Source: a virus
DNA length: 64,000 nucleotides
Strand: one strand, 5' to 3'
Virus record (IMG/VR): IMGVR_UViG_3300045988_164842
Coordinates: 24,293-88,292 of that record
The notes under the pieces are model-generated. The model had not been told where the DNA came from. It searched no databases and saw only the letters and a program-made list of their open reading frames with translations. Made by a program: the position numbers and the translations under genes. Each line of letters starts with the position of its first letter. Positions within the stretch are counted from its first letter, which is position 1. This document shows, in pieces, positions 8,194-63,716 of the stretch.

Positions 8194-9102
8194 TTATTTT
8201 TTACTTTTTTGGACATTTGAAAGAGGTGAATTGAACATAGCTTCTTTCTTTTGGTTGTCGCTAATATGCGTATAAATCCTTGTTGTGTTCAGATTTTCAT
8301 GTCCGAGAATTTCACAAAGTGTGAGCAAGTCAACACCACCTTGGTACATCATTGTAGCGGCACTGTGTCTAAGTTTGTGTGTAGAAAGTCCTTTATCTTC
8401 AAGTCCTGCCGCCTTCAATGATTTCTTTACAAGCTCCTGTGTTGCCCTAACACTTATTCTTTCTTTCTTCTGAGAAACAAACAACGCTTCGTTTTCATCT
8501 TCCTTTACATAAAGGTATTCTTCCAGAGCTTTTATACAAGCCTTGTTGAGAAAGAGCAGGCGTTCTTTATTTCCTTTGCCGAGAATTTTCATAGTACATT
8601 CCGAGAAATCGATGTCTGACACGTTGAGATTTACAAGCTCACTTACACGCAAACCACAATTAAGGAACAGTACGAGAATACAGTAATCTCTTTCCGGGTG
8701 ACGACTAAAGTCACTGACATGATTAAGAATTTCCGTAGCTTCATCAAGCGTTGCATATTTTGGCAACGCTTTTTTTATCTTTGGTCGTTCAACAAATTCC
8801 GCAGGGTTTTTGTCAATAAGATGAAGCCTTTTCCTTGCGTATTCAAAGAACGATTTGAGAGCGGAAATAGCTCTTGCACGGGTGTTGGTACACACGTTGT
8901 TGTCTGCAAGATGATTAAGGTAATCGTAGATGTTTTCCGGTGTGACTTTCGCTACATCATCAAGAGTAACATTCTCTTTCAGAATGTATGAGAAAAACGA
9001 TTCAGCTTCCCTTGTGTATATAAGAATTGTCTGAGGGGAATTTGCTTTGATGACTTTCAGGTATTCAGCGTATTCATTGATAATTTTTTCTTTGTATTCC
9101 AT
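8194..9102 (-). CDS. tyrosine recombinase (XerC/XerD-type integrase)
   Basis: 302 aa; HKLRHSAATMMYQ..LGHENLNTTRIYTH catalytic box (R..H-R-Y); N-terminal SAM-like domain. Confidence 0.9.
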   Translation of the reverse strand: MEYKEKIINEYAEYLKVIKANSPQTILIYTREAESFFSYILKENVTLDDVAKVTPENIYDYLNHLADNNVCTNTRARAISALKSFFEYARKRLHLIDKNPAEFVERPKIKKALPKYATLDEATEILNHVSDFSRHPERDYCILVLFLNCGLRVSELVNLNVSDIDFSECTMKILGKGNKERLLFLNKACIKALEEYLYVKEDENEALFVSQKKERISVRATQELVKKSLKAAGLEDKGLSTHKLRHSAATMMYQGGVDLLTLCEILGHENLNTTRIYTHISDNQKKEAMFNSPLSNVQKSKK

Positions 9103-11924: not shown

Positions 11925-12725
11925 TCAGTCAACCTTTATCCCAGTTGTTCTGAAAAAGATTTCGCTATCAAAGTTCGGGAGACTTTTAATTTCCTCTTTA
12001 TCGCATGGAGAGAGGTTGTTCCATTTGTTTTGTTTATCTTCGGATTCTATAAGAGTAATCATGATTTTTCTTGCTGGTGAAGACATCCAATCTTCATAAG
12101 TCCAATCCGACATTTTATCGAACATACGAATACATTCCTTTTTGTAGGACTTTTCATTGAAACAGCCATAAACGTATGCTCCTGAATTGCAATCACCATA
12201 ATTATAGTTACCTGAATTGCAATCACCATAATTATAGTTACCTGAATTGTAGTAACCGTAATTACGAGTACCTGAGTTAAAGCTTCCGCAATTTTCTTCA
12301 CCTGAATTGCAATCGCCATAATTATAAACTCCGTCATTATTGCTACCATAGTTATTCCAACCAAGATTATTATTTCCGTAATTGAAGTTACCCTCGTTGT
12401 CATTACCGTAATTATAGTTGCCTGAATTCAAAACTCCCGCATTGTCTTCCCCGGAATTCATTTCAGCAAGAAAATCTTCCATGTGATATACTTTAATCAC
12501 TCTAAAATCTTTAGCAGTGAAAAATTCGTTTTCAAAAGGAGTTCCTTTATCCGACATTTCTATTTCTCCAAGAGCCTCCAATTGAACAATAACACCGAAA
12601 GTGTAGGAATAATCTAAAAGATTAACGCCTTTTTTCATAAACCTAAGCCCTTCTTTATCATGGATGACATCAGAGAGAGAAAAATTGCGAAATTCATCAG
12701 GTGTAAGATGTATATATCCTTCCAT
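11925..12725 (-). CDS. pentapeptide-repeat protein
   Basis: About 18 consecutive 5-residue units (NSGNY NYGND NEGNF NYGNN ...) flanked by unique N- and C-terminal domains; GAAAGGA SD. Confidence 0.8.
   Translation of the reverse strand: MEGYIHLTPDEFRNFSLSDVIHDKEGLRFMKKGVNLLDYSYTFGVIVQLEALGEIEMSDKGTPFENEFFTAKDFRVIKVYHMEDFLAEMNSGEDNAGVLNSGNYNYGNDNEGNFNYGNNNLGWNNYGSNNDGVYNYGDCNSGEENCGSFNSGTRNYGYYNSGNYNYGDCNSGNYNYGDCNSGAYVYGCFNEKSYKKECIRMFDKMSDWTYEDWMSSPARKIMITLIESEDKQNKWNNLSPCDKEEIKSLPNFDSEIFFRTTGIKVD
12181..12240. repeat. perfect 2 x 30-bp tandem duplication inside the pentapeptide-repeat gene
   Basis: cctgaattgcaatcaccataattatagtta occurs twice back to back; degenerate copies continue to about 12340. 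Confidence 0.95.
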
Positions 12726-13229: not shown

Positions 13230-13252
13230 CCCCGTGTAGCCGATAGGTCAGC
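13230..13252 (-). promoter_or_regulatory. conserved leader box, copy a
   Basis: Minus-strand GCTGACCTATCGGCTACACGGGG, about 25 nt upstream of the SD of the 46-aa ORF. Near-identical to the boxes at 18602-18625 and 20305-20327. Confidence 0.55.
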
Positions 13253-18584: not shown

Positions 18585-18601
18585 AGTTTCCTCCATTTTC
18601 T

Positions 18602-18625
18602 CCCCGTAATGCCAGATAGGTCAGC
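18602..18625 (-). promoter_or_regulatory. conserved leader box, copy b
   Basis: Minus-strand GCTGACCTATCTGGCATTACGGGG. It starts about 10 nt downstream of the TAGAAT -10, so it is predicted to be the mRNA 5' end. Confidence 0.55.
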
Positions 18626-18635
18626 CTTTTATTTT

Positions 18636-18664
18636 ATTCTATTGACTTTTTAGGTATTTGTCAA
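18636..18664 (-). promoter_or_regulatory. sigma-70 consensus promoter
   Basis: TTGACA (18664-18659), 17 nt, TAGAAT (18641-18636) on the minus strand. Confidence 0.65.
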
Positions 18665-18742
18665 TAGTTTCTGCGGAGTTTTGTTTTCCGCACTTATGAA
18701 TTTTGTCCTATAAGAGCAAGCACTTTCGACGGTGCAAGCCCC

Positions 18743-18775
18743 TAAAAAAGCCAACTGAACAAAAACAGTTGGCTT
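18743..18775 (-). terminator. rho-independent terminator
   Basis: 10-bp perfect stem AAGCCAACTG (18748-18757) / CAGTTGGCTT (18766-18775), then T-run on the minus strand. Confidence 0.65.
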
Positions 18776-18917
18776 AAAGTTTGCTATTCATTTTTTTCCT
18801 CTCTTTTTCTATCGGGCGGTTTAGGGAAAATCCCCGTTAAGAGATTTCCCTAAAAGCAATGTTGAGTATGCACGATATATACACGCATGTAGCAAGCGCA
18901 CGCACGCACGCGCACAC

Positions 18918-18945
18918 GAAAAAAGGGTTCCGCCCTTGCGGGCGG
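18918..18945 (-). terminator. GC-rich hairpin + T6 after the 441-aa gene
   Basis: CCGCCC (18930-18935) / GGGCGG (18940-18945). The minus-strand T6 (18919-18924) lies 5 nt after the stem. Confidence 0.5.
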
Positions 18946-18961
18946 TCGCCTGTTGTTTTTT

Positions 18962-20287
18962 TTACTGGAGCGACTCCGATTTAAAACGCTCAAAGCCGTG
19001 CTCTTTGTCTAAGACGTGGAACACCAACGCCTTAGTCAGGAACAGCCCCGCATTTTTTTTCAGTTTTACCTGAATGTCATTTGCGGTTGCCGTCGGCGTT
19101 TGAGTGCATAAAGCCGTGATGACTTTGAACGCGCTCATATAAAGCACACGATTGAAGCCGTATGCCTTATAAAACGCCTCACTCTCTTTTTTGAGTTCCC
19201 TCGTAGAGAGTCCCGCATCCGGAACATTTTCCGCCCCTGAAAATGCCGCCGTATTTAATGCTTCAATGCGGGCGTCAATCGCATCAAGCATTTTATTGTA
19301 TCCCTCAGGGGGCGTTGTTACATCGCCGAGGGAGACGATGTAATTTTTGGAAGTAACGGTACCTGAGATAATACCGTCCTTTTCTTTGTTCCATTTTGTT
19401 TTAAGGGCTGGAACTTGACCCCAACAACTGAGGAAACATTTCCCTTTTTCCTCAGTTGTTTCCGCCCCTGAAAACGCCTCTTTGATTTTCAAGGCTTTGA
19501 GGGCTTTTATGTAGTCACTCATTTCCAATAAAAAGAGGAATACCTCCATTTTGTCGGCTGAGTGGTTACACTCAAGGGCGGTTTCCTGCACCTTTGCGAG
19601 TGTTGCCCCGAAAAGTTCAGGGTCAACGTCAACGCAAAGATACAGAAATTTTTTCTGTATAGCAGTCAGTGACGTAACTGCTGTTTTCTGTTTCCCTGCA
19701 AAATATGCAACGTATGCAGGAAAACGGGTTGAAATTGCCGAGTCTTTTACGTCATACGACGCAACAATTTCTTCAAGGCGTGGGAAATTGTCGTCCCATC
19801 CTTTTCCTACGCCCGAAATTTCTGTTACGTCAGCCGGTTTTATTTCGGCTGACTTTTCCGTAACTGTAGGGGCTGCAACCGCCTGCTTTTCCTGCTCCGC
19901 TTCAAGCAGGAATTCATTGTATTCAGCCCCTACACTGAATACAACCTCTTTTCCTTCCAGCTTTGCAAAGCTGGAAAAGCTTGCAAGAGGGCGGAATATG
20001 TTGGACTGTTCCATTACATGGAATTTGTCCAACATTGAAGGCTTTCTTGCCGTAAAAGTCGGGTGTGTGAACCTGACTTCAACCCCCTCGCCTTCTTCCA
20101 ATATTATAACCCTTCCTTCGCCGTGAAGGGTTATAATATCCCCGTCGCCGTCTTCTATTCTGTCAGCGTTTCCCATGCTGACAGCCTTAGAGGCGGCTGT
20201 TACCACAGCGTCAAGGGCTGTATAAAATGCTCTTGTTTCTGCTGTAACAGTTGTGGCGGTTGTTTCTGTAGCTATTGCGTTTTTCAT
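18962..20287 (-). CDS. hypothetical protein with Thr/Ala-rich N-terminus (441 aa)
   Basis: ATG 20287 follows GGAGGAAATT. N-terminus MKNAIATETTATTVTAETR; internal duplicated AFSGAE motif. Visibly more GC-rich than its neighbours. Confidence 0.7.
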   Translation of the reverse strand: MKNAIATETTATTVTAETRAFYTALDAVVTAASKAVSMGNADRIEDGDGDIITLHGEGRVIILEEGEGVEVRFTHPTFTARKPSMLDKFHVMEQSNIFRPLASFSSFAKLEGKEVVFSVGAEYNEFLLEAEQEKQAVAAPTVTEKSAEIKPADVTEISGVGKGWDDNFPRLEEIVASYDVKDSAISTRFPAYVAYFAGKQKTAVTSLTAIQKKFLYLCVDVDPELFGATLAKVQETALECNHSADKMEVFLFLLEMSDYIKALKALKIKEAFSGAETTEEKGKCFLSCWGQVPALKTKWNKEKDGIISGTVTSKNYIVSLGDVTTPPEGYNKMLDAIDARIEALNTAAFSGAENVPDAGLSTRELKKESEAFYKAYGFNRVLYMSAFKVITALCTQTPTATANDIQVKLKKNAGLFLTKALVFHVLDKEHGFERFKSESLQ

Positions 20288-20304
20288 AATTTCCTCCGAT
20301 TTCT

Positions 20305-20327
20305 CCCCGTAATGCCGATAGGTCAGC
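20305..20327 (-). promoter_or_regulatory. conserved leader box, copy c
   Basis: Minus-strand GCTGACCTATCGGCATTACGGGG directly upstream of the SD of the 441-aa gene. Confidence 0.55.
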
Positions 20328-20801
20328 TTAAAATGTTCGTTATTTTTTAGGGATATTTCACCCTTAGCGCAACGCACCTATATAGATACGCTCCGTTAAG
20401 GAAGAAATTAGAATACAACCAGCGTATTCTAAAGTCCCTTAACGCCGTGGAATTTTGTCAGCCCCACAGCAGAAAACAGAAACTTTTTTCGCCATATATT
20501 TAAATAGTCTCTATATAATCCGCCAACGTTGCTAAACTTCAAAGGGATTTTAGCAGTTTCTAACAGCAACAAAAATATTGCTGAAAATCCCCATCAACGC
20601 CGAAACACGTCAACTTTTTATATAAATCTATTCATTTTTCAAGTTGCTTTATGGAATTTTCATCCAATAGTGAGTTTCACACTATAAATTAACATTCAAA
20701 ATTAAGTGTTCCAAAAACGCCGTTTTAAATCGCTTTTTCAGAACGTTCCAAAAACGTTCTGACGATTTTTTGAATTATTAAATTATCTTTTCTATGCTTT
20801 T

Positions 20802-20830
20802 ATTATAGCATAGAATTTTATGTTTGTCAA
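20802..20830 (-). promoter_or_regulatory. perfect sigma-70 consensus promoter firing leftward inside the noncoding hub
   Basis: TTGACA (20830-20825), 17 nt, TATAAT (20807-20802) on the minus strand. No ORF lies within about 500 nt downstream. Confidence 0.65.
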
Positions 20831-21093
20831 CCCTTTTTGAAAAATTTTTTTGATTTTTTCAGGGCGTTTGACTCTCCCCATAGCCGCCCGGGTTTTTTGT
20901 TTTCCCTGACTGTGGTTATAGTATACCACGCCCCCACCCTGATTTATACCACTTTAAAATAACATTCTATGAACTTTATATTAATATACAACACTTAGCC
21001 CGTAAAGTGTTAATTATCTATACAGTTGAACGGCTAACCGTTGAATAATACCATATTAATTGCTAATAAAAGTAAAAGCAAGGGTGTTCTTGT

Positions 21094-21122
21094 ATTATAT
21101 CAGAAATAACAATAAATGTAAT
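21094..21122 (-). promoter_or_regulatory. extended -10 promoter firing leftward
   Basis: ATTACA (21122-21117), 17 nt, TGATATAAT (21102-21094) on the minus strand. Confidence 0.45.
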
Positions 21123-21628
21123 TGCTATTTTTTTTGTAATAGGAGGTGAACAAGTGTTAACATTTTCCCAGAGCTGGATTGTACTACTCTAACTAATACA
21201 GTTTATGAACAATTTATGAATTAGTTAAGTTTCAACGATATTTACAATAATAGTAAAATAGATAACTTGTTAATATCTGTAAGACTTGCATAAGGAAAAT
21301 AATAGAAACAACGTGTAATACATATTACACGCGGTTTTAGGCGTATATGGGGCGTGTATTGAAATAACTGTAAAAATAAAGCAGCTTAGAGAACGATACA
21401 GGTATTCAAAAACTCATGTCTTATTTCTCAAATTGAAATCTCTACAAGTACTTCAAAATTTCCACAAATCAAATAAGATTTTTGAGATTATAAGAATAAA
21501 AAATCAGTCTGATACATTTAGGATTTAGGAGTAATCAGTATTGTAAAATGCGTAAAATAAATGATAACTCCGATGGCTTATGGGAAATATTGAATATATA
21601 ATCTTGTTATTATGTTGGCTCGTAAAGA

Positions 21629-21818
21629 GTAATGATTGCAGAGGTATTCAGGAAGTGAGATTAAGAACTATCAGTCTCAAAGGTCTTCCAGAATTGCAGG
21701 TAATATTTTTTTTAAAAAAATACAAATTGGACGTAACGAATTGCAGGAGACTAATAAAAGAGCAGGTCATATATTTCAAAAAATATCACACAAGAAAAGA
21801 AAGTAAGGATTGCAGAAG
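21629..21818. repeat. iteron-like dispersed repeats (4 copies of ATTGCAG core)
   Basis: GTAATGATTGCAGAGG (21629-21644), CCAGAATTGCAGGTAA (core 21693-21699), GTAACGAATTGCAGGAG (21733-21749), GTAAGGATTGCAGAAG (21803-21818). Confidence 0.6.
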
Positions 21819-22057
21819 TCTTTGGAGATTCAGTTCTTACAGGCTTATAAGCTGTGTGTTTGTGTTCTATCGGGAAGTTTTCTGTATCTTGTTTCTGCTT
21901 GGGATTTTTTCTTATGAAAAAATTTTTTCTTGCTTTTTCGGGAGGTTTGCAACATCGAGAGGTAAATTGTAAACTTTCTGTTAAGTATATTGACGTGATA
22001 AACCACGCATTTACGGGCTTTGTGAGCATACAAAAAGTTCCTTAATAATTTGGAAAC

Positions 22058-22086
22058 TTGAGTTTTTGTCAGTTTTGTGATATAAT
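22058..22086 (+). promoter_or_regulatory. strong extended -10 promoter for the rightward arm
   Basis: TTGAGT (22058-22063), 17 nt, TGATATAAT (22078-22086), about 190 nt upstream of the helicase ATG. Confidence 0.65.
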
Positions 22087-22282
22087 AAAAACAGACGAAG
22101 AGAAGAAGCTGACGGAATAGCAACAGAAGTTAGAGAGCTTCTTTTCTTACTTAATGGTTCGTAGGAGTAGAATATAAGGTATAGGTGTTTCCGGCACAAA
22201 AACCTCTACAACCAACGTATCTATGGGCTTTATGAGCATTTTTTTTAAAAACCCTCAGTGTCACATTTGAAAGGAGCATAAA

Positions 22283-23761
22283 ATGACCTATATTTCGCAA
22301 TTAAACTTCAAAAACAACATTGTTCCTCACAAACTCAATTTGCTTTATGCAGGTTGCGGAACAGGAAAGACAGAATGGGCAACAAGAAAAGTGTTTCAGG
22401 ATTTCCCTGACATCAAACCTTGCGAAACACTTCTCGTTGTTCCTAAAACGTGGATTGCAAAACAACAGGCTGAGAAAAGGAATGTCTACAGGTATGTCAG
22501 CTCAGAAAGAGCGATGTCAGATGAAAATAAGAAATGGCGTGACTACTGGAATGGTGTTTCTGATGAAGTTGACAACGAGAATGTTGTCAATGTTTTGACT
22601 TATGCAACCCTTATCAATATTCTTCGCAATCCAGAAAGCAACGGACGTTTACCTTTTGAGAGGATAAAGCTTGTAATCATTGACGAATGTCATTCTCTTT
22701 TTACTGAAACTTACATGACTGATTTGAATGTTATGAATCTTTGGCTTAACATGGCTATCAAAACAACAGATACTTTATTTATCGGTATGAGTGCAACTCC
22801 TATGCTTATAAAAGAGTATGCAGAAAAAGTAATTTGTAGTCCGGTAAATCAGGTCAACAAGGAAGTTATAATGAACTATACAGCAGAAAATCTTATTATA
22901 ACCGACAAAGAAACCATCCCGTATATGCTTCATAGCGGTTTTCTTACAGGCAGAACGCTAATAATGTGCAATTCCCTTGAAGAATGTAAATGTCTTTCGT
23001 ATGTTCTCAGTGACTCTGCTTATATTGTTAGTGAGTACAACAATGAATACGCACCAGACATGGCTGAGATTACAGATTATATTTTAAAGAACAACAGCAT
23101 TCCTGATACATTTAAAGGCAAGAAACTTAAAGTTCTTCTCTCTACGGCTGTCCTTAGAGAGGGGATTACTTTCAAAAAAGATTGTGGTATTGAAAATATA
23201 ATCTGTATGTCGGGTTGTGATGTAAACATTATTCAGATTGCTGGAAGATGCCGCTACAACATCAAAAATCTTATTGTCGTAAAGCCATTGACTATATCGT
23301 CTAATACAATTGATTACGTCAAAAAGAAGGAAATGCAGTTCAGGGATTTTTGTAAAGGCAGGTACACAGATAATGGTTGGTTCGATGGTATAAAACACAT
23401 TCTTTCTTTTAACGATATCAAGAAAATTCAGTATAAAACAAAGGAAGACTTCTTTTGTGGAGATACATATAACATACCAAAAAACAGCAAGGCATTATTA
23501 AAAAAATCAGTTGCTGAAAAATTAAATGCGTACATCGAAAGAAATTTAAAAGGGAAATTCGTAACAGAAAAAGAAAGAAAAGAAGCTGTCAAATTCATGT
23601 GTGAAAACTCAATTCTTTCTGGCGACCCTGACAAAATAACACCACAAGCCTTTTATAAATTCATTGAAACAAATACCCCATACACCTTAGAACCAGAACG
23701 AAAAAGAGTTGATGGCAGATTAAAACGTGGTTGCTCTTTTCGCAAGAAAAGGAGTAAATAA
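22283..23761 (+). CDS. SF2 (DEAD/DEAH-box type) helicase
   Basis: Walker A GCGTGKTEW, DEAH-like box VIIDECHSL; AAAGGAG SD. Confidence 0.8.
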   Translation: MTYISQLNFKNNIVPHKLNLLYAGCGTGKTEWATRKVFQDFPDIKPCETLLVVPKTWIAKQQAEKRNVYRYVSSERAMSDENKKWRDYWNGVSDEVDNENVVNVLTYATLINILRNPESNGRLPFERIKLVIIDECHSLFTETYMTDLNVMNLWLNMAIKTTDTLFIGMSATPMLIKEYAEKVICSPVNQVNKEVIMNYTAENLIITDKETIPYMLHSGFLTGRTLIMCNSLEECKCLSYVLSDSAYIVSEYNNEYAPDMAEITDYILKNNSIPDTFKGKKLKVLLSTAVLREGITFKKDCGIENIICMSGCDVNIIQIAGRCRYNIKNLIVVKPLTISSNTIDYVKKKEMQFRDFCKGRYTDNGWFDGIKHILSFNDIKKIQYKTKEDFFCGDTYNIPKNSKALLKKSVAEKLNAYIERNLKGKFVTEKERKEAVKFMCENSILSGDPDKITPQAFYKFIETNTPYTLEPERKRVDGRLKRGCSFRKKRSK

Positions 23762-24234
23762 TGACTGCGGTACGATTATTTCAGGAAAATGAAGGTCTTG
23801 TTCACTATGTGCTCAATCACTACACACTGAAGCCTTTTTCTTATAAGCTCGGTTATACCTATGAAGACTGGACTTCCGTAGGACGTGAAGGGCTGTGGAA
23901 AGCTTCTAAAGAGTACGTGAGCAAAGATACGACATATGCATTCAGCACAATAGCTTGTAACCACATTCAGAACAACATACGGCAAGAACTAAGAAAGAAA
24001 AGAATTGCCTTGTGTCCTTTAGAAGAAAACATGATAATCCCAAAAGATAGCTTTGACGAAACACTCTTTTCAGTCAAAGAGATTGTAGGCGAAAAAGAGT
24101 ACAATATTTTACTGGACTACTACGGTCATAAATACACTTTCGAGTATTTGAGTGAGAAATACGACATGACAAACGCTCAACTCAAAAAACTTTTGAACAC
24201 ACTTCCGAGAAAAATCAGAAAGGAGTTCTCTTGA
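23761..24234 (+). CDS. sigma-70-family sigma factor (regions 2 and 4 only)
   Basis: ENEGLVHYVLNHY..EDWTSVGREGLWKASKEY..YAFSTIACNHIQNNIRQELRK (region 2) and a C-terminal HTH (region 4). The start overlaps the helicase stop (TAATG). Confidence 0.75.
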   Translation: MTAVRLFQENEGLVHYVLNHYTLKPFSYKLGYTYEDWTSVGREGLWKASKEYVSKDTTYAFSTIACNHIQNNIRQELRKKRIALCPLEENMIIPKDSFDETLFSVKEIVGEKEYNILLDYYGHKYTFEYLSEKYDMTNAQLKKLLNTLPRKIRKEFS

Positions 24235-26928
24235 ATGACTAATAGGAATATCATGGTCTACAAATTTGAAAGTCAGTTTCTCAAAGAGCATAACTATAAG
24301 CTCAATCTTTCCTTTGATGAAGCTGAGAGTTGCGGTCAGATTATCAAGATTGCCGATAATCAGTTTCTAAGAACTATCCGCAGGTTTACACTTCATACTA
24401 TCAATTTTCAGAGAGTTGAAAGACTGTATCACGAAAGAGATATCTTATCCAAGAAAAATTGCGATGAAGAAAGAAGACTGACTGTTACAAGCCGTATTAA
24501 TCGCAGTTTGTTTGTTCCTGAATACATGGAAGTCTCCATGACGACAAATTCTCAGTACAAAGAAATCATCAAAAAGAGAATTACTCTTAATGGCAAAGTG
24601 TATAGAAGACTTTCATGTTCCGCAGGACAAGCAAGGAACGAAACTGTTATCTTTTGTTCTGAAGAAATTATTTCCGATGTGAAGAAAGCTATTGACAATG
24701 ACAGAAAACCTATTCCCGTTGCTCCGTCAAAGTACAACGCCTATTTTGGTTTAGCAGGTTCCGCAACTCAGATTGTCAGTGAGCCAAGGTTCATTGTGGT
24801 GAAAGACTTTGAGAACGAAACATCTTTTAAATGTCATTGGGTGGAAGAAGCAGGCGACAATGAAGACGATATTATTTCCGAAAAGGTGATAACCCAAAAG
24901 ATGAATCGAACAGACGGCATGGGGCTTATATCTCCCAGGCTTGCTAAAAAGTGGGCGAAAGAATTAGACCTTGACTATGTTCCAAGTCAGTTCGGAATAA
25001 GACAAGCTTTTCTCAAAGGTATGTTATGCGTGTTCGATATTCACACTTTCTGTAAAGAAAAGAACCATGGTAACTACATGATAGAAACCGTATATGGCGA
25101 AAAGGTAGACATACGAAATTACGATATTATCTTTTCTGAATCTCAGTTCAAGTTGTGGAATGCGTATGATAATGAAAAAGACTATGCGGATAAATGTCGG
25201 AAGAATAAGCTTTACTGGGGTGTTCCACAATACGCTCCGAAAGAGTGCAAGAACACGCTGAAAATGAATTATCAATTCCTGCAAACGCTTAATATCAAAG
25301 ATGAAGACATTCCTCTCATATGTAATCAAACAGTTGAGTGGATAAGAGGGGTTTCATATGCGAACCCTGCATACATATTTCTGTTTTTCTTAGGGGCAAA
25401 CATAACCGAGCAGAAAATAAAAACGTTTTTGCAGTACCAAGGAAACTGGTGGCTGAAAGCGTTAATAGCAAATCCAGACCTTATGGTTCAGGATAAATAT
25501 ATCCAAAGTCAGATTAAGAGGCTTATAAAGAAAAAAATCCATGACACATACATAGGCGAAATTTTTCTTGAAGGTAATTTCCAGATACTTGTGTCAGACC
25601 CTTATGCATTCATGCAATCAGTGTGTGGTATTACACCTACTGGCTTACTGAAAGAAAATGAATACTACTCAAACTACTGGAATGAACGTGGCGTATCTCT
25701 TGTTGATGGTATGCGTTCCCCTCTCACATTTCGTTCTGAACACGTTTTAATGAATCTTATAAAGAATGATGAAACTGAAAAATGGTACAAACATTGCAAG
25801 ACTGGCGTCATTCTGAACTGGCATGGTCATGATTGCGTAAACTTCGCAGGAAGCGACTTTGACCTTGACATTCTCGCAACCACCTGTAATGATGTTGTTC
25901 TCAGGTCTACATACAAAAACGAGCTTCCTGTAGGGTATGATGTAAGCAAACCTGTAAAGATACTTCCTACGGAAGAAGACCTTATAAAAGCTGACTTCTT
26001 TTCTTTTGGTTCTATCATAGGCAGTATTACAAACAAGAGCAGTAACGCCTATGCATTGCTCGCAAATTTAGAAAGAAACCCTGAAAAGAATAAAGAACAG
26101 ATTCAGATTGTGTATAGCAGGCTTATTCAATGCTGTAAGGCTCAAGGAAAACAAATCGACAAAGCGAAAATAGGTCAAAAGGTTAAAGGTATCCCAAACA
26201 TCTGGATAAAGTATATTCCACATGATGACAGGGATACTGATGAAATTACTCAACAAAAAGACCTTATAAATACTTGCTTACTTGACAAACCTCCTTATTT
26301 TTTTATTTATCGTTATCCTGATTATTACACTAAGTATAGAAAATATATTAAAAATGCTGACGGATATTGCAAAAAGAAGTACCATGCAAGTTTGAATACG
26401 GTTTCTCAGAACCCTGATACAGCGGATAAGAAGAAATTCATTAATAGTTTTTACAAGAAAATGCCTGTGGTCGATAGCCCAAGTTCAATGAATAAGATTT
26501 GCCACTATCTCGAAAACACTGTAATGGATATTCAGAGTGAAACCACCATTAATCCAGATATAAGCAAATATCTTAGAGATAATACCGTGTTTGTATCAAA
26601 GGAGAGGGAAGACGAAATAATTTCAGCCTTTGTTGTCTTTCTTAGCGAAATCAGTACAACTTTAGGAAACAAGCACTCTGATTCGGATATTGTAAAAGTG
26701 TTCCGTGAAATCTACAGAAACTATTGTATGTCTGATGTTGTGAATGTTCTTGTCGATAATTTTTACAACAGCAAAGCTTCAGTCTTGTGGATAGTTATCG
26801 GTAAAAATCTTCTTCATAATCTTTGTGTTAATACAGTTGGAGAGGAAAATGTAATGATACCTTTTCCAGACGAACAAGGTGAAATCGAGTACATGAACAA
26901 AAGATACGGTTGGAGGGTCGTGGAATGA
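24235..26928 (+). CDS. single-subunit two-barrel RNA polymerase candidate (YonO / cellular RdRP-like)
   Basis: 897 aa; ordered motifs GIRQAFLKGMLCVFDI, VDGMRSPLTFRSEHV, NFAGSDFDLDIL (Asp triad codons 25855-25869). Confidence 0.65.
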   Translation: MTNRNIMVYKFESQFLKEHNYKLNLSFDEAESCGQIIKIADNQFLRTIRRFTLHTINFQRVERLYHERDILSKKNCDEERRLTVTSRINRSLFVPEYMEVSMTTNSQYKEIIKKRITLNGKVYRRLSCSAGQARNETVIFCSEEIISDVKKAIDNDRKPIPVAPSKYNAYFGLAGSATQIVSEPRFIVVKDFENETSFKCHWVEEAGDNEDDIISEKVITQKMNRTDGMGLISPRLAKKWAKELDLDYVPSQFGIRQAFLKGMLCVFDIHTFCKEKNHGNYMIETVYGEKVDIRNYDIIFSESQFKLWNAYDNEKDYADKCRKNKLYWGVPQYAPKECKNTLKMNYQFLQTLNIKDEDIPLICNQTVEWIRGVSYANPAYIFLFFLGANITEQKIKTFLQYQGNWWLKALIANPDLMVQDKYIQSQIKRLIKKKIHDTYIGEIFLEGNFQILVSDPYAFMQSVCGITPTGLLKENEYYSNYWNERGVSLVDGMRSPLTFRSEHVLMNLIKNDETEKWYKHCKTGVILNWHGHDCVNFAGSDFDLDILATTCNDVVLRSTYKNELPVGYDVSKPVKILPTEEDLIKADFFSFGSIIGSITNKSSNAYALLANLERNPEKNKEQIQIVYSRLIQCCKAQGKQIDKAKIGQKVKGIPNIWIKYIPHDDRDTDEITQQKDLINTCLLDKPPYFFIYRYPDYYTKYRKYIKNADGYCKKKYHASLNTVSQNPDTADKKKFINSFYKKMPVVDSPSSMNKICHYLENTVMDIQSETTINPDISKYLRDNTVFVSKEREDEIISAFVVFLSEISTTLGNKHSDSDIVKVFREIYRNYCMSDVVNVLVDNFYNSKASVLWIVIGKNLLHNLCVNTVGEENVMIPFPDEQGEIEYMNKRYGWRVVE

Positions 26929-28209: not shown

Positions 28210-28291
28210 GCTACCATGGTGAAATAGGAAGACACAGCGGACTTTAAGTTCGTTGAGGAAACTCATGTCGGTTCAAGTCCGACTGGTGGTT
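28210..28291 (+). tRNA. class II (long variable arm) tRNA with anticodon UUA - ochre (UAA) suppressor type
   Basis: Hand-folded. Acceptor GCTACCA/TGGTGGT (2 G-U pairs); U8, A14, G18G19; D stem GTG/CAC. Anticodon stem GCGGA/TTCGT with loop CTTTAAG (TTA at 28244-28246). Variable arm TGAG-GAAA-CTCA; T arm GTCGG-TTCAAGT-CCGAC. No encoded CCA. Confidence 0.65.
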
Positions 28292-58142: not shown

Positions 58143-58211
58143 GTAAATTCCTTTCGGATTACGTTTATGAGTTTGCTATGACCGACCAAAGTTAAGCAAA
58201 CTCATTTTTTT
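58143..58211 (+). ncRNA. about 69-nt cis-antisense RNA candidate (sar-like)
   Basis: Predicted TSS about 7 nt after the -10. 11-bp perfect terminator stem ATGAGTTTGCT (58167-58177) / AGCAAACTCAT (58195-58205) followed by T7. The 3' arm covers the RHH stop codon. Confidence 0.6.
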
Positions 58212-58378
58212 AATTCAGAATACAATTTATCTATGCCACGTCTTATTGTTTGAACTCTTGTTTCTGAATTGTTCTCGGCAACCTTATCCAATTTTTGAAG
58301 CATTTCCTTATCAAGTCTTACAGCAAGCTGAGTAGACTTAGGGTTTTTAGATTTCGGTCTGCCAATCTGTGCATTCAT
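58202..58378 (-). CDS. ribbon-helix-helix (Arc/CopG-like) repressor
   Basis: 58 aa; MNAQIGRPKSKNPKSTQLAVRLDKEMLQKLDKVAE; ATG 58378 follows GAGAGGTG. Confidence 0.7.
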   Translation of the reverse strand: MNAQIGRPKSKNPKSTQLAVRLDKEMLQKLDKVAENNSETRVQTIRRGIDKLYSELKK

Positions 58379-58391
58379 TGTATCACCTCTC

Positions 58392-58441
58392 TTTTTGAAT
58401 ACCACTAAGTGTATTATATATCATGGTATTCAAAAAGTCAA
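58392..58441 (-). promoter_or_regulatory. RHH gene promoter embedded in a 13-bp perfect inverted repeat (operator)
   Basis: Minus-strand TTGACT (58441-58436), 17 nt, TATAAT (58418-58413). IR TTTTTGAATACCA (58392-58404) / TGGTATTCAAAAA (58424-58436). Confidence 0.7.
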
Positions 58442-59986: not shown

Positions 59987-61219
59987 TTACGCTACATTTA
60001 CTACAAACGGATGTAACACGCACCCTCTATCCCATTTTATTGGGACTACTTTCTTTAAAATCTGATAAGCACCATTCAAGTCAGCGTTTATTGTAATGCC
60101 TGAATTGGAAACAAACAACCCTCTGTGAACACGTCTTGATTTATTGTAATTCTCTTTTACAGGTTCTTCATTGTCAATGAAACTCGTACCGCTTGTATAG
60201 CTTTCTTCGGTTGTAACAACTGCTATACCATATTCTTCTGCTTTGTACTCTATCATCTCAATAAGTCTTGCAAAAGGTATCTGAACAAAATGCTGATTTA
60301 TTCTCTTTGAAAGGTTTACATTTTGTTTCCATTCTTTATTTTTGCCAATAATGATTGTGCAAATATCGTGTTTCAAACAGTAGTCAATGATGTATTTGCT
60401 TGCTTTATGTAAATAATCATCAATCTTAGAATTTCTCTTTTCCGTCAATCTGTCCATTCTTTTTGAATATTCACTGTTGTTCATTCTTTTAGCGATTTCT
60501 CTATAGTGACTGATTTTCTTATTGTAATGTTGATTGATAGATTTTAAGGGCTTTCCATTGATTATAAAAGCTTTTTCGCCTGCATTATTGCACACTGTTG
60601 CAAGATTATCTACACCGATATCAATGCCTATATATCTTTGATTATCTGATTTCTTTTCCGGAACATTGATGTTATATACCAACTCTGCAATAATTCTGTT
60701 CCTTTTTGGAATAAATCTGATTTGTTGAAAGGAAGCAAAGTTTTCTTTCTTTATAAATCTTGGTATAAGTGTAAAACCTTTAAATGTTTTAGGAAAATGA
60801 AGACTACCGTTTCTTAATTTGCAGTTCTGGTTAGTTAAGATTAGAAGAAAGTTTCCGTTTTTCTTTAAATATTTAGGAAGCTTTGGTCTTCCTAAATATT
60901 TATCTTTGTTCTTACTCCAGTCTTTGATACTTGCAAAGAACGCTTTCCAGTTACTATCAAGCACTCTCAATATCTGTTGAGCCGACTGTGCTGTAGGCAT
61001 TTCTTTGTAGTCGGGATATTCTTCATCGGCTTTTAGAAGCTTGTCAAGTTCCGCATAACGTATCCATTTACTATTATCTTGACTTGTGAAAGCCTGCCTG
61101 ACAAGATAGTTCGCATGATTGTACAGGTTTTTAGATTTGTGGCAAAAATCAATCAGCATAGAAAAGAAAGCATTTGAAGATTTAATTATATGCTTTTCAA
61201 CTCTTGTCTGAATCGACAT
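59987..61219 (-). CDS. tnpB: TnpB (IS200/IS605-IS607 OrfB, RuvC-like RNA-guided nuclease family)
   Basis: 410 aa; RuvC motifs IGIDIGVDNLA (D), VVTTEESYTS (E), INADLNGAYQI (D). The usual CxxC..CxxC zinc finger between E and D is absent. Confidence 0.85.
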   Translation of the reverse strand: MSIQTRVEKHIIKSSNAFFSMLIDFCHKSKNLYNHANYLVRQAFTSQDNSKWIRYAELDKLLKADEEYPDYKEMPTAQSAQQILRVLDSNWKAFFASIKDWSKNKDKYLGRPKLPKYLKKNGNFLLILTNQNCKLRNGSLHFPKTFKGFTLIPRFIKKENFASFQQIRFIPKRNRIIAELVYNINVPEKKSDNQRYIGIDIGVDNLATVCNNAGEKAFIINGKPLKSINQHYNKKISHYREIAKRMNNSEYSKRMDRLTEKRNSKIDDYLHKASKYIIDYCLKHDICTIIIGKNKEWKQNVNLSKRINQHFVQIPFARLIEMIEYKAEEYGIAVVTTEESYTSGTSFIDNEEPVKENYNKSRRVHRGLFVSNSGITINADLNGAYQILKKVVPIKWDRGCVLHPFVVNVA

Positions 61220-61802
61220 CTTGTAACACCTCTTTTATTTTTTGAATTTTTCTTTTGCTGTACAGTTTTATAGAATAACAGTGCAACAGAGAAACAATTT
61301 CCTCGAAAATTTCTTGACTATCAAGTTTTTCCGAACCAACCTCACTCATAACAATAATTTCGCAATTGTATTTTTTAAACAAATGATAAAACAAATCAAA
61401 ACCAACTCTCGAAAGTCTGTCTTTATAGGTAATTACAATGCGTTCTACTTTGTTATCAATAATGTCGTCAAGCATTTCAAAGAAACTATTTCTTTTTTCA
61501 AAATTTATTCCGCTTGCTACATCTGAGTAAACTCCTGAAATCTTATATCCATTTGTAAAGCAAAACTGTTTGAGTAGTTCTATTTGATTTTCAAGGTCGT
61601 GTTTTTGCTTAGATGTCGAAACTCTTGCATAAATGTATGTTTTTCTTTTCAAATCCTTATTTAAGAATAAATACACGCTGTTTTCATCATAATCATATCT
61701 GCCATTCGGAAGTAATTCAACTTTTATTATTTCGTCTTTTACATATTTCGTAAGTGTTTGTCGTGAAATTCTAAGCAATTTTAAAACTTCATTTGCTTTC
61801 AT
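61197..61802 (-). CDS. tnpA: IS607-type serine recombinase transposase
   Basis: N-terminal MerR-like HTH (LLRISRQTLTKYVK), catalytic YARVSTSKQKHDLENQ, 201 aa. Confidence 0.85.
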   Translation of the reverse strand: MKANEVLKLLRISRQTLTKYVKDEIIKVELLPNGRYDYDENSVYLFLNKDLKRKTYIYARVSTSKQKHDLENQIELLKQFCFTNGYKISGVYSDVASGINFEKRNSFFEMLDDIIDNKVERIVITYKDRLSRVGFDLFYHLFKKYNCEIIVMSEVGSEKLDSQEIFEEIVSLLHCYSIKLYSKRKIQKIKEVLQDVDSDKS

Positions 61803-61913: not shown

Positions 61914-63716
61914 TTAATAATTATCCCACCATTTCTTCAAGGCTTCGTTTTCTACCGAAGTCTGCGGTACTGGGTGTGTTTGCATGGCTTCCCACAGCTT
62001 GTAAAATACTGCATCACCGCCCATTACGGATGATTGAACATTCTTTATGTTTATAGTCTGATACGCTCCAGAAAGTTCAGTCTTCATAGATTCAAGAGAT
62101 ACTCCTGCGTTTTCATAGTAGTCGCAGATTTTGTCAACCTGTTCGTCTGTAAGTCTCCAGTACAGGTCAAGAGGTATCTGTGTCACCATGTCAGCCACAG
62201 AAACTTTAGAACGCCTCTTTGCTTCTTTGCTGTACCTTATTCTTTCAGCTTCAGTACAGCAAGTGTCGGGGGCATCGTAGTCAAATAAATCTGTATCGAA
62301 ATTTGACTCCCAGTCAAGGAAACCTTTCTTTCTTACCACTGGGGGGGTCGCATATTCCACTTTGCGTGGATATTTTGATACAGTCGCAGTGGTGTTTACA
62401 GCATTTGTAGCAGTATCACCTGTAGCAAAGATATTCGGCATATCAACCCCTATCTTAGTCAACAGGTTTCTGACCACGCCTGCAAGGTAGTTAGCCGGGG
62501 CTTTTACTTCGTCTTTGGAAGCACAGAACACGCCCCATGCCTGTTTGAGAATGTCTTCTCTAAGATACTCAAACACGCCTCTGACATCAAAGACGTTAAG
62601 AACCTTTGCTATTTCTTTACTCGTAAGGGCTTTTCTATATGTTTCAGGGACATAAGCAGGTATGTCTGATGATGTACTTGTCGGTACAGGTGTAGAAATC
62701 GCCGTAGATTCAGGCTTGATAGGCGTTGTCATTACTGGTACTGGGGTAGGAGTAGCTACTGCCATCACAGGCTCCGGAGTAATTGGCGGTAAAACATCAG
62801 CAACTTTTTGCACTGTTTCTGCTACAGGGTTTATAATTTTTTCTTCAAGCCACTCACCGAGTTTAAAAGTCAGGCTCGCAGTCGCTCCGTTGTTTGTCGG
62901 TATCGGGAAATCAGACATCTGTTCTTCTACTTTCTTAGCTATCTCTTCTTGTTGTTTAAGTACGGAAGCGGAAGCAAAGAACATAATCTTTTCCTCTCTC
63001 TTGGTTCTTTTGCGGTCATATTCCCCGGCTTCATATGCAAGAGCTTTCTTTGTAGGGATAAGCTCAAAATCATTTTTATGCATATGGATTGATATACTTG
63101 TAAATTTTTTTCTGTCATAGTTTCTTTGAATATCAATCGAGAACCTTCCTTGTTGTGCTATTTCTCTACAGGCTTTACTCAGACAGACTACAAAAAATAC
63201 CCGAGGGATTTTGTAATTTACACCTAAAATGTCTTGAAGCTGATTGACACTATAGGTTTTTTCGCCTTTCTTCGCCCACTGAGTAAGGATTTCATAAAGG
63301 CGTATAGCTGGCAGTGAAGTATACCATCTGATTTCTTCCAGAGGGTATTTCACATAACCGCCTTTAAGGTCTGTAATATGTGTCAATATTTCATCAGAAA
63401 ACTGTGCTTTAATGTAATCACCATCAAAACTTATCGCTTTCCACACTTTTATTTTTTGTCCGTCCTGTAATGTGAAACACTGGTTGCGACTGTTCTCAAC
63501 CGCTGTCAAAAGATATCCATTTCCTCTGTCTTTGGTCGGGAAAATCTTTTTGAACTCGTCCGTATTGATGTAGATTTCTCCTTTTGTTTTTTCTATGTTC
63601 ATAGGATTGATTTTCGCTAAAACGTACAGGAACAGCCTGTATTCAGTCAAGCTCATGCTTTGACTTGCTTGCGTTAAAGCAACACTTTTCGATACTGTCA
63701 GTTTCTTTTCTTTCAT
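61914..63716 (-). CDS. Rep_3-type replication initiator with Pro/Thr linker and DnaD-like C-terminal region
   Basis: N-terminus KSVALTQASQSMSLTEYRLFLYVLAKINP (Rep_3 hallmark). Linker VATPTPVPVMTTPIKPESTAISTPVPTSTSS. C-terminal APANYLAGVVRNLL resembles the DnaD/DnaB_2 motif. GGAGG SD. Confidence 0.75.
   Translation of the reverse strand: MKEKKLTVSKSVALTQASQSMSLTEYRLFLYVLAKINPMNIEKTKGEIYINTDEFKKIFPTKDRGNGYLLTAVENSRNQCFTLQDGQKIKVWKAISFDGDYIKAQFSDEILTHITDLKGGYVKYPLEEIRWYTSLPAIRLYEILTQWAKKGEKTYSVNQLQDILGVNYKIPRVFFVVCLSKACREIAQQGRFSIDIQRNYDRKKFTSISIHMHKNDFELIPTKKALAYEAGEYDRKRTKREEKIMFFASASVLKQQEEIAKKVEEQMSDFPIPTNNGATASLTFKLGEWLEEKIINPVAETVQKVADVLPPITPEPVMAVATPTPVPVMTTPIKPESTAISTPVPTSTSSDIPAYVPETYRKALTSKEIAKVLNVFDVRGVFEYLREDILKQAWGVFCASKDEVKAPANYLAGVVRNLLTKIGVDMPNIFATGDTATNAVNTTATVSKYPRKVEYATPPVVRKKGFLDWESNFDTDLFDYDAPDTCCTEAERIRYSKEAKRRSKVSVADMVTQIPLDLYWRLTDEQVDKICDYYENAGVSLESMKTELSGAYQTINIKNVQSSVMGGDAVFYKLWEAMQTHPVPQTSVENEALKKWWDNY

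Follow-up and report, generated by a model that had tools for sequence, protein, structure and literature searches.

A 1995-bp noncoding hub upstream of a YonO-type RNA polymerase operon, probably a divergent early-control region of an SPbeta-like phage-plasmid

The stretch of viral DNA analyzed here, referred to below as the window, comprises 64,000 nucleotides (nt) of the IMG/VR record IMGVR_UViG_3300045988_164842 (positions 24,293 to 88,292). A leftward and a rightward gene arm are separated in it by a hub of 1995 bp (20288-22282), bounded by the ATG of a leftward gene for a 441-amino-acid (aa) protein (position 20287) and the ATG of a helicase gene (position 22283). This is the largest gap in the window, the next two measuring 636 and 533 bp. 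The helicase gene (22283-23761; 492 aa; SF2, ResIII/DEAD) opens the rightward arm and is followed by genes for a sigma-70/ECF-like protein of 157 aa (23761-24234) and for an 897-aa protein (24235-26928) that matches Pfam RdRP (PF05183), i.e., a YonO-type RNA polymerase, which places the polymerase third in the rightward arm, two genes downstream of the hub. YonO itself is the late-gene RNA polymerase of SPbeta (PMC5467207). In tblastn searches, the 897-aa polymerase shared 43% identity with a Bacillus phage BUCT082 protein (genus Spbetavirus) and also matched SPbeta yonO, Clostridium phage c-st, and Enterocloster phages. The features of the hub, from left to right, are as follows (UTR, untranslated region; SD, Shine-Dalgarno; ORF, open reading frame).

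20288-20342, minus strand: proximal 5' UTR and ribosome-binding site of the 441-aa gene.
20343-20472, minus strand: structured leader RNA of ~130 nt, consisting of one hairpin and a three-way junction.
20473-20783: variable cassette with hairpins of its own, substituted by unrelated sequence in other lineages.
20738-20762, plus strand: terminator-like hairpin followed by T6, from the terminator scan.
20830 to 20802 (whole element, 20790-20830), minus strand: P_L1, predicted leftward sigma-A promoter, TTGACA-17-TATAAT plus TG, 12/12.
20862-20900, plus strand: GC-rich hairpin followed by a T-run, inside an island of 48% GC, read from the sequence.
21094-21122, minus strand: P_L2, second leftward promoter-like site, 10/12.
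21141-21193, plus strand: micro-ORF encoding 12 aa, MLTFSQSWIVLL, preceded by the one strong SD site of the hub, AGGAGGTGA at 21141.
21311-21332 (stem, 21312-21331), both strands: covarying hairpin of 8 bp, flanked by U-rich tails on either strand.
21352-21365: near-invariant block 1, GTGTATTGAAAT.
21399-21417: near-invariant block 2, AGGTATTCAAAAACTCAT, which contains the 12-mer GGTATTCAAAAA.
21600-22004: decayed repeat array of ~65- to 75-bp units with a YGGG core and A/T-rich palindromes.
22005-22029, plus strand: direct-repeat site 1, ACGCATTTACGGGCTTTGTGAGCAT, upstream of P_R.
22058-22086, plus strand: P_R, predicted rightward sigma-A promoter, TTGAGT-17-TGaTATAAT, 10/12 plus TG.
22098-22148, plus strand: 5'-terminal stem-loop of the predicted helicase mRNA, with a 13-bp stem.
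22215-22239, plus strand: direct-repeat site 2, ACGTATCTATGGGCTTTATGAGCAT, in the 5' UTR and followed by T8A5.

The sizeable ORFs of the hub all overlap each other across both strands, genetic codes 4 and 15 open no longer frame than code 11, and ten hub ORFs gave zero Pfam or PHROGs matches in profile searches. Neither a tRNA nor a tmRNA was found in the hub by ARAGORN. An earlier note, drawn by a model from the letters of the window, had described the region as an ORF-free hub lacking an SD-bearing gene and had judged the overlapping ORFs at 21580-22199 to be junk-like; the absence of a credible gene stands, and the idea of genes hidden under codes 4 or 15 falls away. The longest ORF (130 aa, 21580-21972) is not preceded by an SD site, and its counterparts in relatives measure 45, 49, 50, 54, or 165 aa, with non-triplet indels; although called as a 165-aa gene in L080, it is frame-broken in the other relatives and was rejected as a gene. 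Likewise rejected was a basic minus-strand ORF of 62 to 65 aa (21845-22033), which is kept in the window and L003 and deleted in L009. The micro-ORF at 21141-21193 is extended to 24 aa in L003 and has lost its SD site or start in three lineages (L081, L078, and L076), and therefore it is probably not a conserved gene.

Eight hub lineages were available for comparison, namely, the window itself and, from metagenomic contigs found via protein searches with both flanking genes, L081, L080, L003, L078, L076, L009/L010, and L011. DNA similarity searches gave zero matches among 50,697 phage records and 72,556 plasmids, as did a tblastn search of phages with the helicase, and searches of IMG/VR by protein and by DNA pattern returned zero relatives. 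GTDB genomes yielded only relatives of ~30% identity, in metagenome-assembled genomes of Bacilli/'Tenericutes', and a DNA-pattern scan of metagenome contigs added one true relative among 19 hits. All close relatives hold a gap of 1.98 to 2.11 kb at the position of the hub, and relatives with a ~30%-identical helicase have gene-poor gaps of 1.3 to 2.8 kb upstream of it, at the same divergence point. Among close relatives, hub segments are 0.77 to 0.96 identical, compared to 0.76 to 0.88 for third-codon positions in the neighboring genes; against L011, the corresponding ranges are 0.32 to 0.60 and 0.46 to 0.55. By this yardstick, divergence of the hub appears near neutral outside short islands. 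Blocks, including ones of 40 to 130 bp, are missing or swapped among close relatives, for example at 20500-20783 and, in L076, at 20993-21030 and 21047-21173. Another arrangement is found in L009 (4719-7482) and L010, where an 86%-identical helicase gene with ~880 bp of hub-like upstream DNA (window 21400-22282) occurs without the sigma and polymerase genes, next to genes for Rep3, a resolvase, and the toxin-antitoxin proteins ParE/DUF6290 and YoeB/RelB. The helicase and its upstream cassette thus appear to move between replicons.

Against this background of divergence, two outward-pointing promoters, P_L1 and P_R, 1.2 kb apart, are conserved. Promoter-like sites as such occur in the hub at chance level (12 observed versus 9.4 +/- 3.2 expected). 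All three promoters that the earlier note had read were recovered (20802-20830, 12/12; 21094-21122, 10/12; 22058-22086, 10/12), the first and third being conserved in all lineages, with spacers that vary. The second, P_L2, is deleted in L076, altered in L078 and L011, and hence dispensable. P_L1 keeps TTGACA, the 17-nt spacing, and TATAAT, TATACT, or TACAAT in 7/7 lineages that cover it, while the sequence of the spacer varies. Its -10 element lies in the loop of a palindrome (20790-20815) that is unique in the window and whose arms change together in L081 (TTCTATGT/ACATAGAA) and are replaced in L011 by GTTGTGT/ACACAAC. The palindrome could serve as an operator or, given the T-run behind it on the plus strand, as a terminator of that strand. 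P_R, predicted to serve the operon of helicase, sigma-like factor, and YonO-type RNA polymerase, retains TGRTATAAT in 8/8 lineages, including L009 and L011. Transcription is predicted to start at ~20795 (minus strand) and ~22094 (plus strand), the latter just upstream of the stem-loop at 22098-22148, which shows one compensatory A-U to C-G change in L009.

P_R is flanked by a direct repeat, ACGYATYTAYGGGCTTTRTGA, at 22005 and 22215; the 25-nt pattern occurs twice, with 0 occurrences expected by chance. The geometry of the two sites is constant: their spacing in the eight lineages is 210, 211, 211, 213, 210, 209, 211, and 210 bp, and the -10 element of P_R lies exactly 73 nt past the start of site 1 in 8/8. 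Two like sites thus flank the promoter at a conserved 209 to 213 bp, ~20 helical turns, as in looped operators, and it is this geometry that suggests looping. Site 2 is the best-conserved block of the 5' UTR, also when L011 is included. In L076, the downstream copy has the sequence variant of the upstream one, a sign that the two sites may exchange sequence. Weaker copies of the repeat are found further upstream, where the decayed array has units at 21669-21722 and 21741-21798 and CGGGARGTTT cores at 21872 and 21938. The array is clearer in L011, with three tandem units at a spacing of 64 to 70 bp, the first of which aligns to 21669-21722 and 21741-21798 with scores of 49.5 and 44 (shuffle maximum, 31.5). 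Identity to close relatives is 0.70 to 0.80 over the array, with many indels. As for the iteron-like repeats of the earlier note, the 25-nt direct repeat at 22005/22215 is present, but Tandem Repeats Finder detected no true tandem array, only two trivial 2-copy repeats. The candidate iteron RATTGCAGR was rejected: its six occurrences in the window (2.9 expected) are not significant, even though four of them cluster in the hub at 21634-21816, and it is not conserved in relatives.

Between the two promoters, the hairpin at 21312-21331, already recognized in the earlier note, pairs in 91% of cells and has two-sided changes in three of eight pairs (in L078, L080, and L011), a covariation score matched by just 10/500 shuffles. 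In the alignment fold, it reaches -12.1 kcal/mol for the minus strand but only about -6 for the plus strand, and the terminator scan classes it as terminator-like on the minus strand; a bidirectional terminator is possible. Immediately to its right, the blocks at 21352-21365 and 21399-21417 are near invariant in the eight lineages (L009 and L011 have one substitution each), whereas the 34 nt between them diverge. The 12-mer GGTATTCAAAAA of the second block has only three exact occurrences in the window, one in the hub and an inverted pair at 58392/58425 that surrounds the promoter of a 58-aa ORF (58202-58378, minus strand), ~36 kb from the hub. This ORF begins MNAQIGRPKSKNPKSTQLAVRLDKEM and has a sub-threshold match to the ribbon-helix-helix (RHH) family. 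A further inverted pair of GGTATTCAAAAA half-sites lies upstream of the gene for a Rep3-family initiator, at 5539-5572 of L084, a contig that continues the same element past the window end. The sharing of the half-site suggests that the 58-aa RHH-like protein might contact the hub. Within the region 58202-58436, the perfect inverted repeat TTTTTGAATACC-N21-GGTATTCAAAAA encloses a -10-like TATTAT. The shorter motif GTATTCAAAA, with up to one mismatch allowed, occurs in the window more often than expected (32 observed versus 14 +/- 3.5 expected).

The only discrete structured RNA found in the hub is the ~130-nt leader RNA at its left edge, 20343-20472. The earlier note had pointed out a hairpin at 20394-20444, which proves to be part of this larger conserved structure of the minus strand. 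In an alignment of six sequences of ~92% identity, its consensus fold (-53.8 kcal/mol; alignment-fold z-score down to -10.6) has 45 pairs, and of the 268 pair cells 99.3% are standard pairs, compared to 37 to 50% with slid partners; 13 further pair types preserve pairing, and only two cells are unpaired. The changes are mostly one-sided and G.U compatible. On the plus strand they would be A.C mismatches, which argues that the RNA is made from the minus strand and is the leader of the leftward operon. For the single sequence, the z-scores of the minus and plus strands are -5.0 and -3.0, respectively. With six such similar sequences, only one pair changes on both sides. A covariance model of the leader RNA (R1) found one copy per genome at seven loci, six of which come from its own alignment, with no second copy and none in distant relatives or SPbeta, and the RNA has no Rfam match. 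Conserved, structured, and on the transcribed strand, it most likely functions in cis within the leftward transcript, by way of stability, antitermination, or translation. Downstream of it, a 39-nt element that contains the ribosome-binding site (20290-20327) recurs, 92% identical, at 18587-18625, upstream of the next leftward gene, where it forms the entire 5' UTR (18597-18640) behind a TTGACA-17-TAGAAT promoter. A partial copy is present at 13239.

The sequence between the leader RNA and P_L1 is a swappable cassette (20473-20783), with identities to the window of 0.30 to 0.39 in L081, L080, and L003, 0.72 in L078, and 0.97 in L076. Two hairpins that the earlier note had seen here are genuine: the one at 20544-20591 has two compensatory pairs in L078 (A-T to G-C and G-C to A-T), and the inverted repeat with T6 at 20739-20771 measures as a 10-bp stem plus T6 (20738-20771). 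For the GC-rich hairpin at 20862-20900, an equivalent hairpin with a T-run is present at the aligned position in L011, and its role may be terminator-like. Terminator-like sites are enriched in the hub as a whole (five observed versus 0.9 +/- 0.9 expected).

This inventory leaves little room for a large ornate RNA of the ROOL, GOLLD, HEARO, or OLE kind, the first two of which the earlier note had considered for the region. That the noncoding stretch is long, that the phage has a low-GC Gram-positive (Firmicute) host, and that a tRNA gene lies ~6 kb off in the window are circumstantial points in its favor. However, cmscan of the whole window at Rfam gathering scores returned only that tRNA, at 28210, and cmscan of 20200-22400 at E <= 10 on both strands gave only chance-level snoRNA and miRNA matches. 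In sliding-window folding, strong excess stability was confined to 20320-20520 (minus-strand z = -5) and 20680-20920, with z-scores of ~0 over 20900-22282 save for one short window near 21880 (z = -3). An alignment-fold scan with column shuffling on both strands gave signals only at 20300-20524, at 21250-21399, and in two short plus-strand windows, i.e., short hairpins rather than several hundred nt of conserved covarying structure. With near-neutral divergence and 40- to 130-bp blocks deleted or replaced between close relatives, an ornate RNA filling the region appears refuted as far as sequence analysis reaches, and we give it next to no credence.

The hub can be placed in a wider genetic context. 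Further on, the rightward arm encodes HU, a YonG-like protein, terminase, structural proteins, and a GH25 lysin, while the left arm contains genes for dUTPase, NrdD/G, ThyX, the DnaN clamp, Bro/ANT proteins, and an XerC/D-like recombinase. A gene for the Rep3-family initiator (600 aa, 61914-63716, minus strand) lies at the right end of the window, ~40 kb from the hub. Carrying these phage genes together with a Rep3 initiator, the element resembles an SPbeta-like phage with an additional, plasmid-type mode of replication. L084 encodes two Xre-type helix-turn-helix proteins, an ImmA-like peptidase, and Bro/ANT, and the immunity module apparently adjoins rep in a phage-plasmid. YTGTTRTA short repeats and an AcrVA2-like gene are also present in this part of the element (L084 1-6000).

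Taken together, the hub is, on balance, probably the divergent early-control region, with promoters and operators, of an SPbeta-like phage-plasmid, and neither a gene nor a giant RNA. P_L1 would drive the leftward operon via a leader of ~500 nt, the first part of which is the swappable cassette and the last part the three-way-junction RNA. P_R would drive the operon of SF2 helicase, sigma-like factor, and YonO-type RNA polymerase. A phage DNA-binding protein may occupy the repeats around P_R and loop or coat the DNA, and this occupancy would silence the polymerase operon, and hence lytic development, as long as the element persists as a plasmid. The invariant GGTATTCAAAAA block might be bound by a second protein, probably the 58-aa RHH-like one, whose own promoter carries the same half-site. 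Between the two transcription domains, the covarying hairpin at the center would act as a divider. The promoters, repeat pair, palindrome, and shared motif thereby broadly support a regulatory hub. As to the genetic switch proposed in the earlier note, the repressor/antirepressor module (two Xre-type helix-turn-helix proteins, ImmA-like peptidase, and Bro/ANT) adjoins Rep3 and lies outside the hub.

The hub can be compared with SPbeta. There, too, a divergent noncoding region, the 953-bp yonR-yonP gap of SPBc2, lies directly upstream of the operon encoding the polymerase, and judged from gene order the hub is its positional counterpart. The yonP promoter region bears an SPBRE, the site of the master repressor MrpR (PMC10516654). 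Both regions have a host-type promoter that is expected to be repressed in lysogeny and a repeated element at that promoter. In contrast, the hub is twice as long (1995 versus 953 bp) and has no sequence similarity to the gap, its operon starts with the 492-aa SF2 helicase and the sigma-like factor rather than with the 64-aa YonP, and its repeat is a different one, present at one promoter only, whereas SPBRE occurs at some ten SPbeta promoters. Furthermore, SPbeta is an integrated prophage and the element with the hub a Rep3 phage-plasmid. The XerC/D-like recombinase in the left arm (8194-9102) is the only candidate for an MrpR-like fold and appears to be of the catalytic type.

Other control regions offer partial parallels. 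As in the early regions of lambdoid phages, two early promoters point outward and a palindrome covers one -10 element, but lambdoid promoters lie ~100 bp apart around a repressor gene, while those of the hub are 1.2 kb apart with no repressor between them. Like HK022 put and lambda nut, the leader RNA is a conserved multi-stem RNA in the leader of an early operon, as would befit an element acting on the transcribing polymerase or on the mRNA; it differs in being 130 nt long, with a three-way junction ~320 nt from the promoter and no counterpart in Rfam. The two like sites around P_R at a conserved distance recall araO2-araI (210 bp), gal OE-OI, and lac O1-O3, although the hub sites are 21- to 25-bp direct repeats instead of palindromes and looping is suggested by their geometry only. 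Finally, as in the Omega (RHH) regulon of pSM19035, a half-site, GTATTCAAAA, is found at three places, inverted at the RHH-like gene, inverted upstream of the replication initiator, and single/direct in the hub. By this analogy, one small repressor may tie several control regions together, with the difference that the Omega regulon uses heptad arrays and the hub motif is a 10- to 12-mer, that the RHH fold is assigned from a sub-threshold profile match, and that binding is predicted.

Several observations weigh against this control-region reading. The control elements account for a few hundred of the 2000 bp, and retention of ~1.2 kb of near-neutral spacer is left unexplained. No gene is available for termination by the three successive plus-strand terminator-like hairpins at 20738-20900, and so their targets are not accounted for. 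The 21- to 25-bp repeat is absent elsewhere in the window and in L084, including the immunity region, while the operator of a master repressor would be expected at several promoters, like SPBRE. Its spacing may have been kept merely because the intervening 5' UTR is conserved. As the right half accompanies the helicase gene without the sigma and polymerase genes in L009/L010, it may serve the helicase gene. Transcript starts and terminators are predictions. It is also unexplained why many relatives' contigs break inside the hub. At least ten independent metagenomic contigs end within it (L004-L008, L011, L058, L075-L077, and L082). The ends of relatives' contigs map to 20199, 20475, 21118, 21513, 21552, 21628, 22004, 22121, 22321, and 22343, and this scatter suggests assembly breaks, at a guess from mosaicism among strains, and not a genome end at a fixed position. 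A single genome terminus was rejected for the same reason.

Alternatively, the right half of the hub (~21400-22282) could be a lytic replication origin, with the Rep3 locus as a separate origin for the plasmid state, although we consider this unlikely. The degenerate iteron-like repeats and A/T palindromes would bind an initiator and unwind, transcription from P_R would activate the origin, and the helicase would serve it. The hub is AT-rich throughout, with windows of 21 to 24% GC and A/T palindromes, and direct repeats lie beside A/T tracts (T8A7 at 21705-21720 and GAAAAAATTTTTTC at 21914-21927). Distant relatives have repeats of their own upstream of the helicase (20 bp, three copies, in L012; 22 bp, two copies, in L015), and the upstream region and helicase have travelled jointly into another replicon in L009/L010. 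However, the repeats of the hub are spaced at 64 to 212 bp instead of abutting at 17 to 22 bp as in classical iterons, and a set of at least three abutting direct repeats of ~17 to 22 bp was not found. The array at 21601-21860 is the least conserved part, and 20288-22282 contains no DnaA box (TTATCCACA) within one mismatch. The cumulative GC-skew minimum at ~21000 coincides with the switch in gene orientation and is therefore not independent evidence for an origin. Nor is there an initiator gene next to the hub: a weak NCBIfam match of the helicase to the plasmid replication protein CyRepA1 (24.8 bits) is far under the cutoff of 200, the nearest neighbors of the helicase among proteins are Mfd, RecQ, DEAD-box, and RIG-I/Dicer-type helicases and not initiators, and an AlphaFold model searched with Foldseek gave generic SF2 matches only, so that the helicase was rejected as a replication initiator. 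A plasmid-type origin more likely lies next to Rep3, because the YTGTTRTA repeats cluster upstream of that gene. Of the origin suggested in the earlier note, an unlikely lytic role is what is left.

A packaging function is suggested by synteny with SPbeta. In SPbeta and four relatives, packaging starts in the yonR-yonP gap, just ahead of the yonP-yonO operon, where a conserved block of ~250 bp marks the site (bioRxiv 10.1101/2021.11.22.469490), and the hub is in the syntenic position. It might thus hold a pac site for headful packaging, the array and bent A/T tracts forming the binding region of the terminase small subunit. Consistent with this, the related gut phage PMBT24, which has a YonO-type polymerase, is pac-type and circularly permuted (PMC11035940). 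Several phage records start just upstream of the polymerase gene, although the start points of deposited records may be arbitrary. In contrast, hub and SPbeta gap are dissimilar in sequence, the contig ends of relatives define no single terminus, and the right half also occurs in L009/L010, where the 13 kb seen carry plasmid genes and no phage structural genes. A pac site in the hub therefore strikes us as a rather remote prospect.

Long, weakly structured regulatory RNAs made from the hub would account for the three consecutive plus-strand terminator-like hairpins that have no gene to terminate and for the covarying mid-hub hairpin with its U-rich tails. Examples would be a leftward transcript from ~22045 to the hairpin at 21311-21332 and an RNA of the plus strand, antisense to the left leader, that ends at the terminators at 20738-20822. 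Rightward from ~21000, the G>C and A>T skew resembles that of the transcribed right arm, and SPbeta carries an unannotated noncoding RNA at the YonO promoter (PMC5467207). However, no good promoter for such transcripts was found by promoter scan or by reading the sequence, and 21400-21900 shows neither conserved structure nor excess stability on either strand and diverges near neutrally. Such RNAs seem improbable.

The surroundings of the hub yielded further observations. The genes for the helicase, sigma-like factor, and YonO-type polymerase form one operon (22283-26928), and the pairing of helicase and polymerase recurs in the ~30%-identity relatives L015, L018, and L016. The top PDB sequence matches of the helicase are to Dicer-like, Brr2, and RIG-I-like (LGP2) helicase domains. 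The promoter and cofactors of the SPbeta polymerase itself are unknown in the literature (PMC5467207); helicase and sigma-like factor could be initiation partners of YonO-type polymerases. Between the polymerase operon and the HU gene is a tRNA gene (28210-28291; Rfam, 43.4 bits). To the left of the hub, the 441-aa protein (18962-20287) has no family match, and its relatives (P0023-P0026) are ~84 to 87% identical across the first third only, the remainder differing, so that the C-terminal part is exchanged between lineages. The 365-bp gap beyond it (18597-18961) has its features on the minus strand: a strong terminator, a (GTGC)n alternating purine-pyrimidine tract at ~18896-18917, a 5-aa micro-ORF followed by a second terminator, and the TTGACA-17-TAGAAT promoter that feeds the duplicated 39-nt leader. 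Elsewhere, a pentapeptide-repeat gene (11925-12725) contains some five copies of a 30-nt tandem repeat (12181-12371), and an IS607-like pair, a resolvase (61197-61802) and TnpB (59987-61219), is located near the right end.

In conclusion, the hub is real, conserved, and unusually long, yet ordinary in kind, and what is modestly novel in it are the leader RNA and the phased repeat pair. There is a small but appreciable chance of more, namely, that the leader RNA represents a new cis-acting class (for the leftward early operon, it could provide processive antitermination or act as a leader that senses a ligand or protein) and/or that the array at P_R combines a transcription switch with a lytic origin or pac site. 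If true, the array would couple expression of helicase, sigma factor, and YonO polymerase to replication or packaging. The pay-off is limited in that these elements occur in one narrow lineage, which is known from metagenomes only. Identifying the region as a control hub rather than an ornate RNA removes a false lead, and it offers concrete parts: two promoters, a phased repeat pair, a shared half-site that leads to an RHH-like regulator, and a 130-nt leader RNA. Phages with a YonO-type polymerase are poorly understood. The window represents a gut relative of these phages, apparently a Rep3 phage-plasmid, in which the polymerase gene shares an operon with the genes for an SF2 helicase and a sigma-like factor, and this operon is preceded by a control region that is long and conserved.

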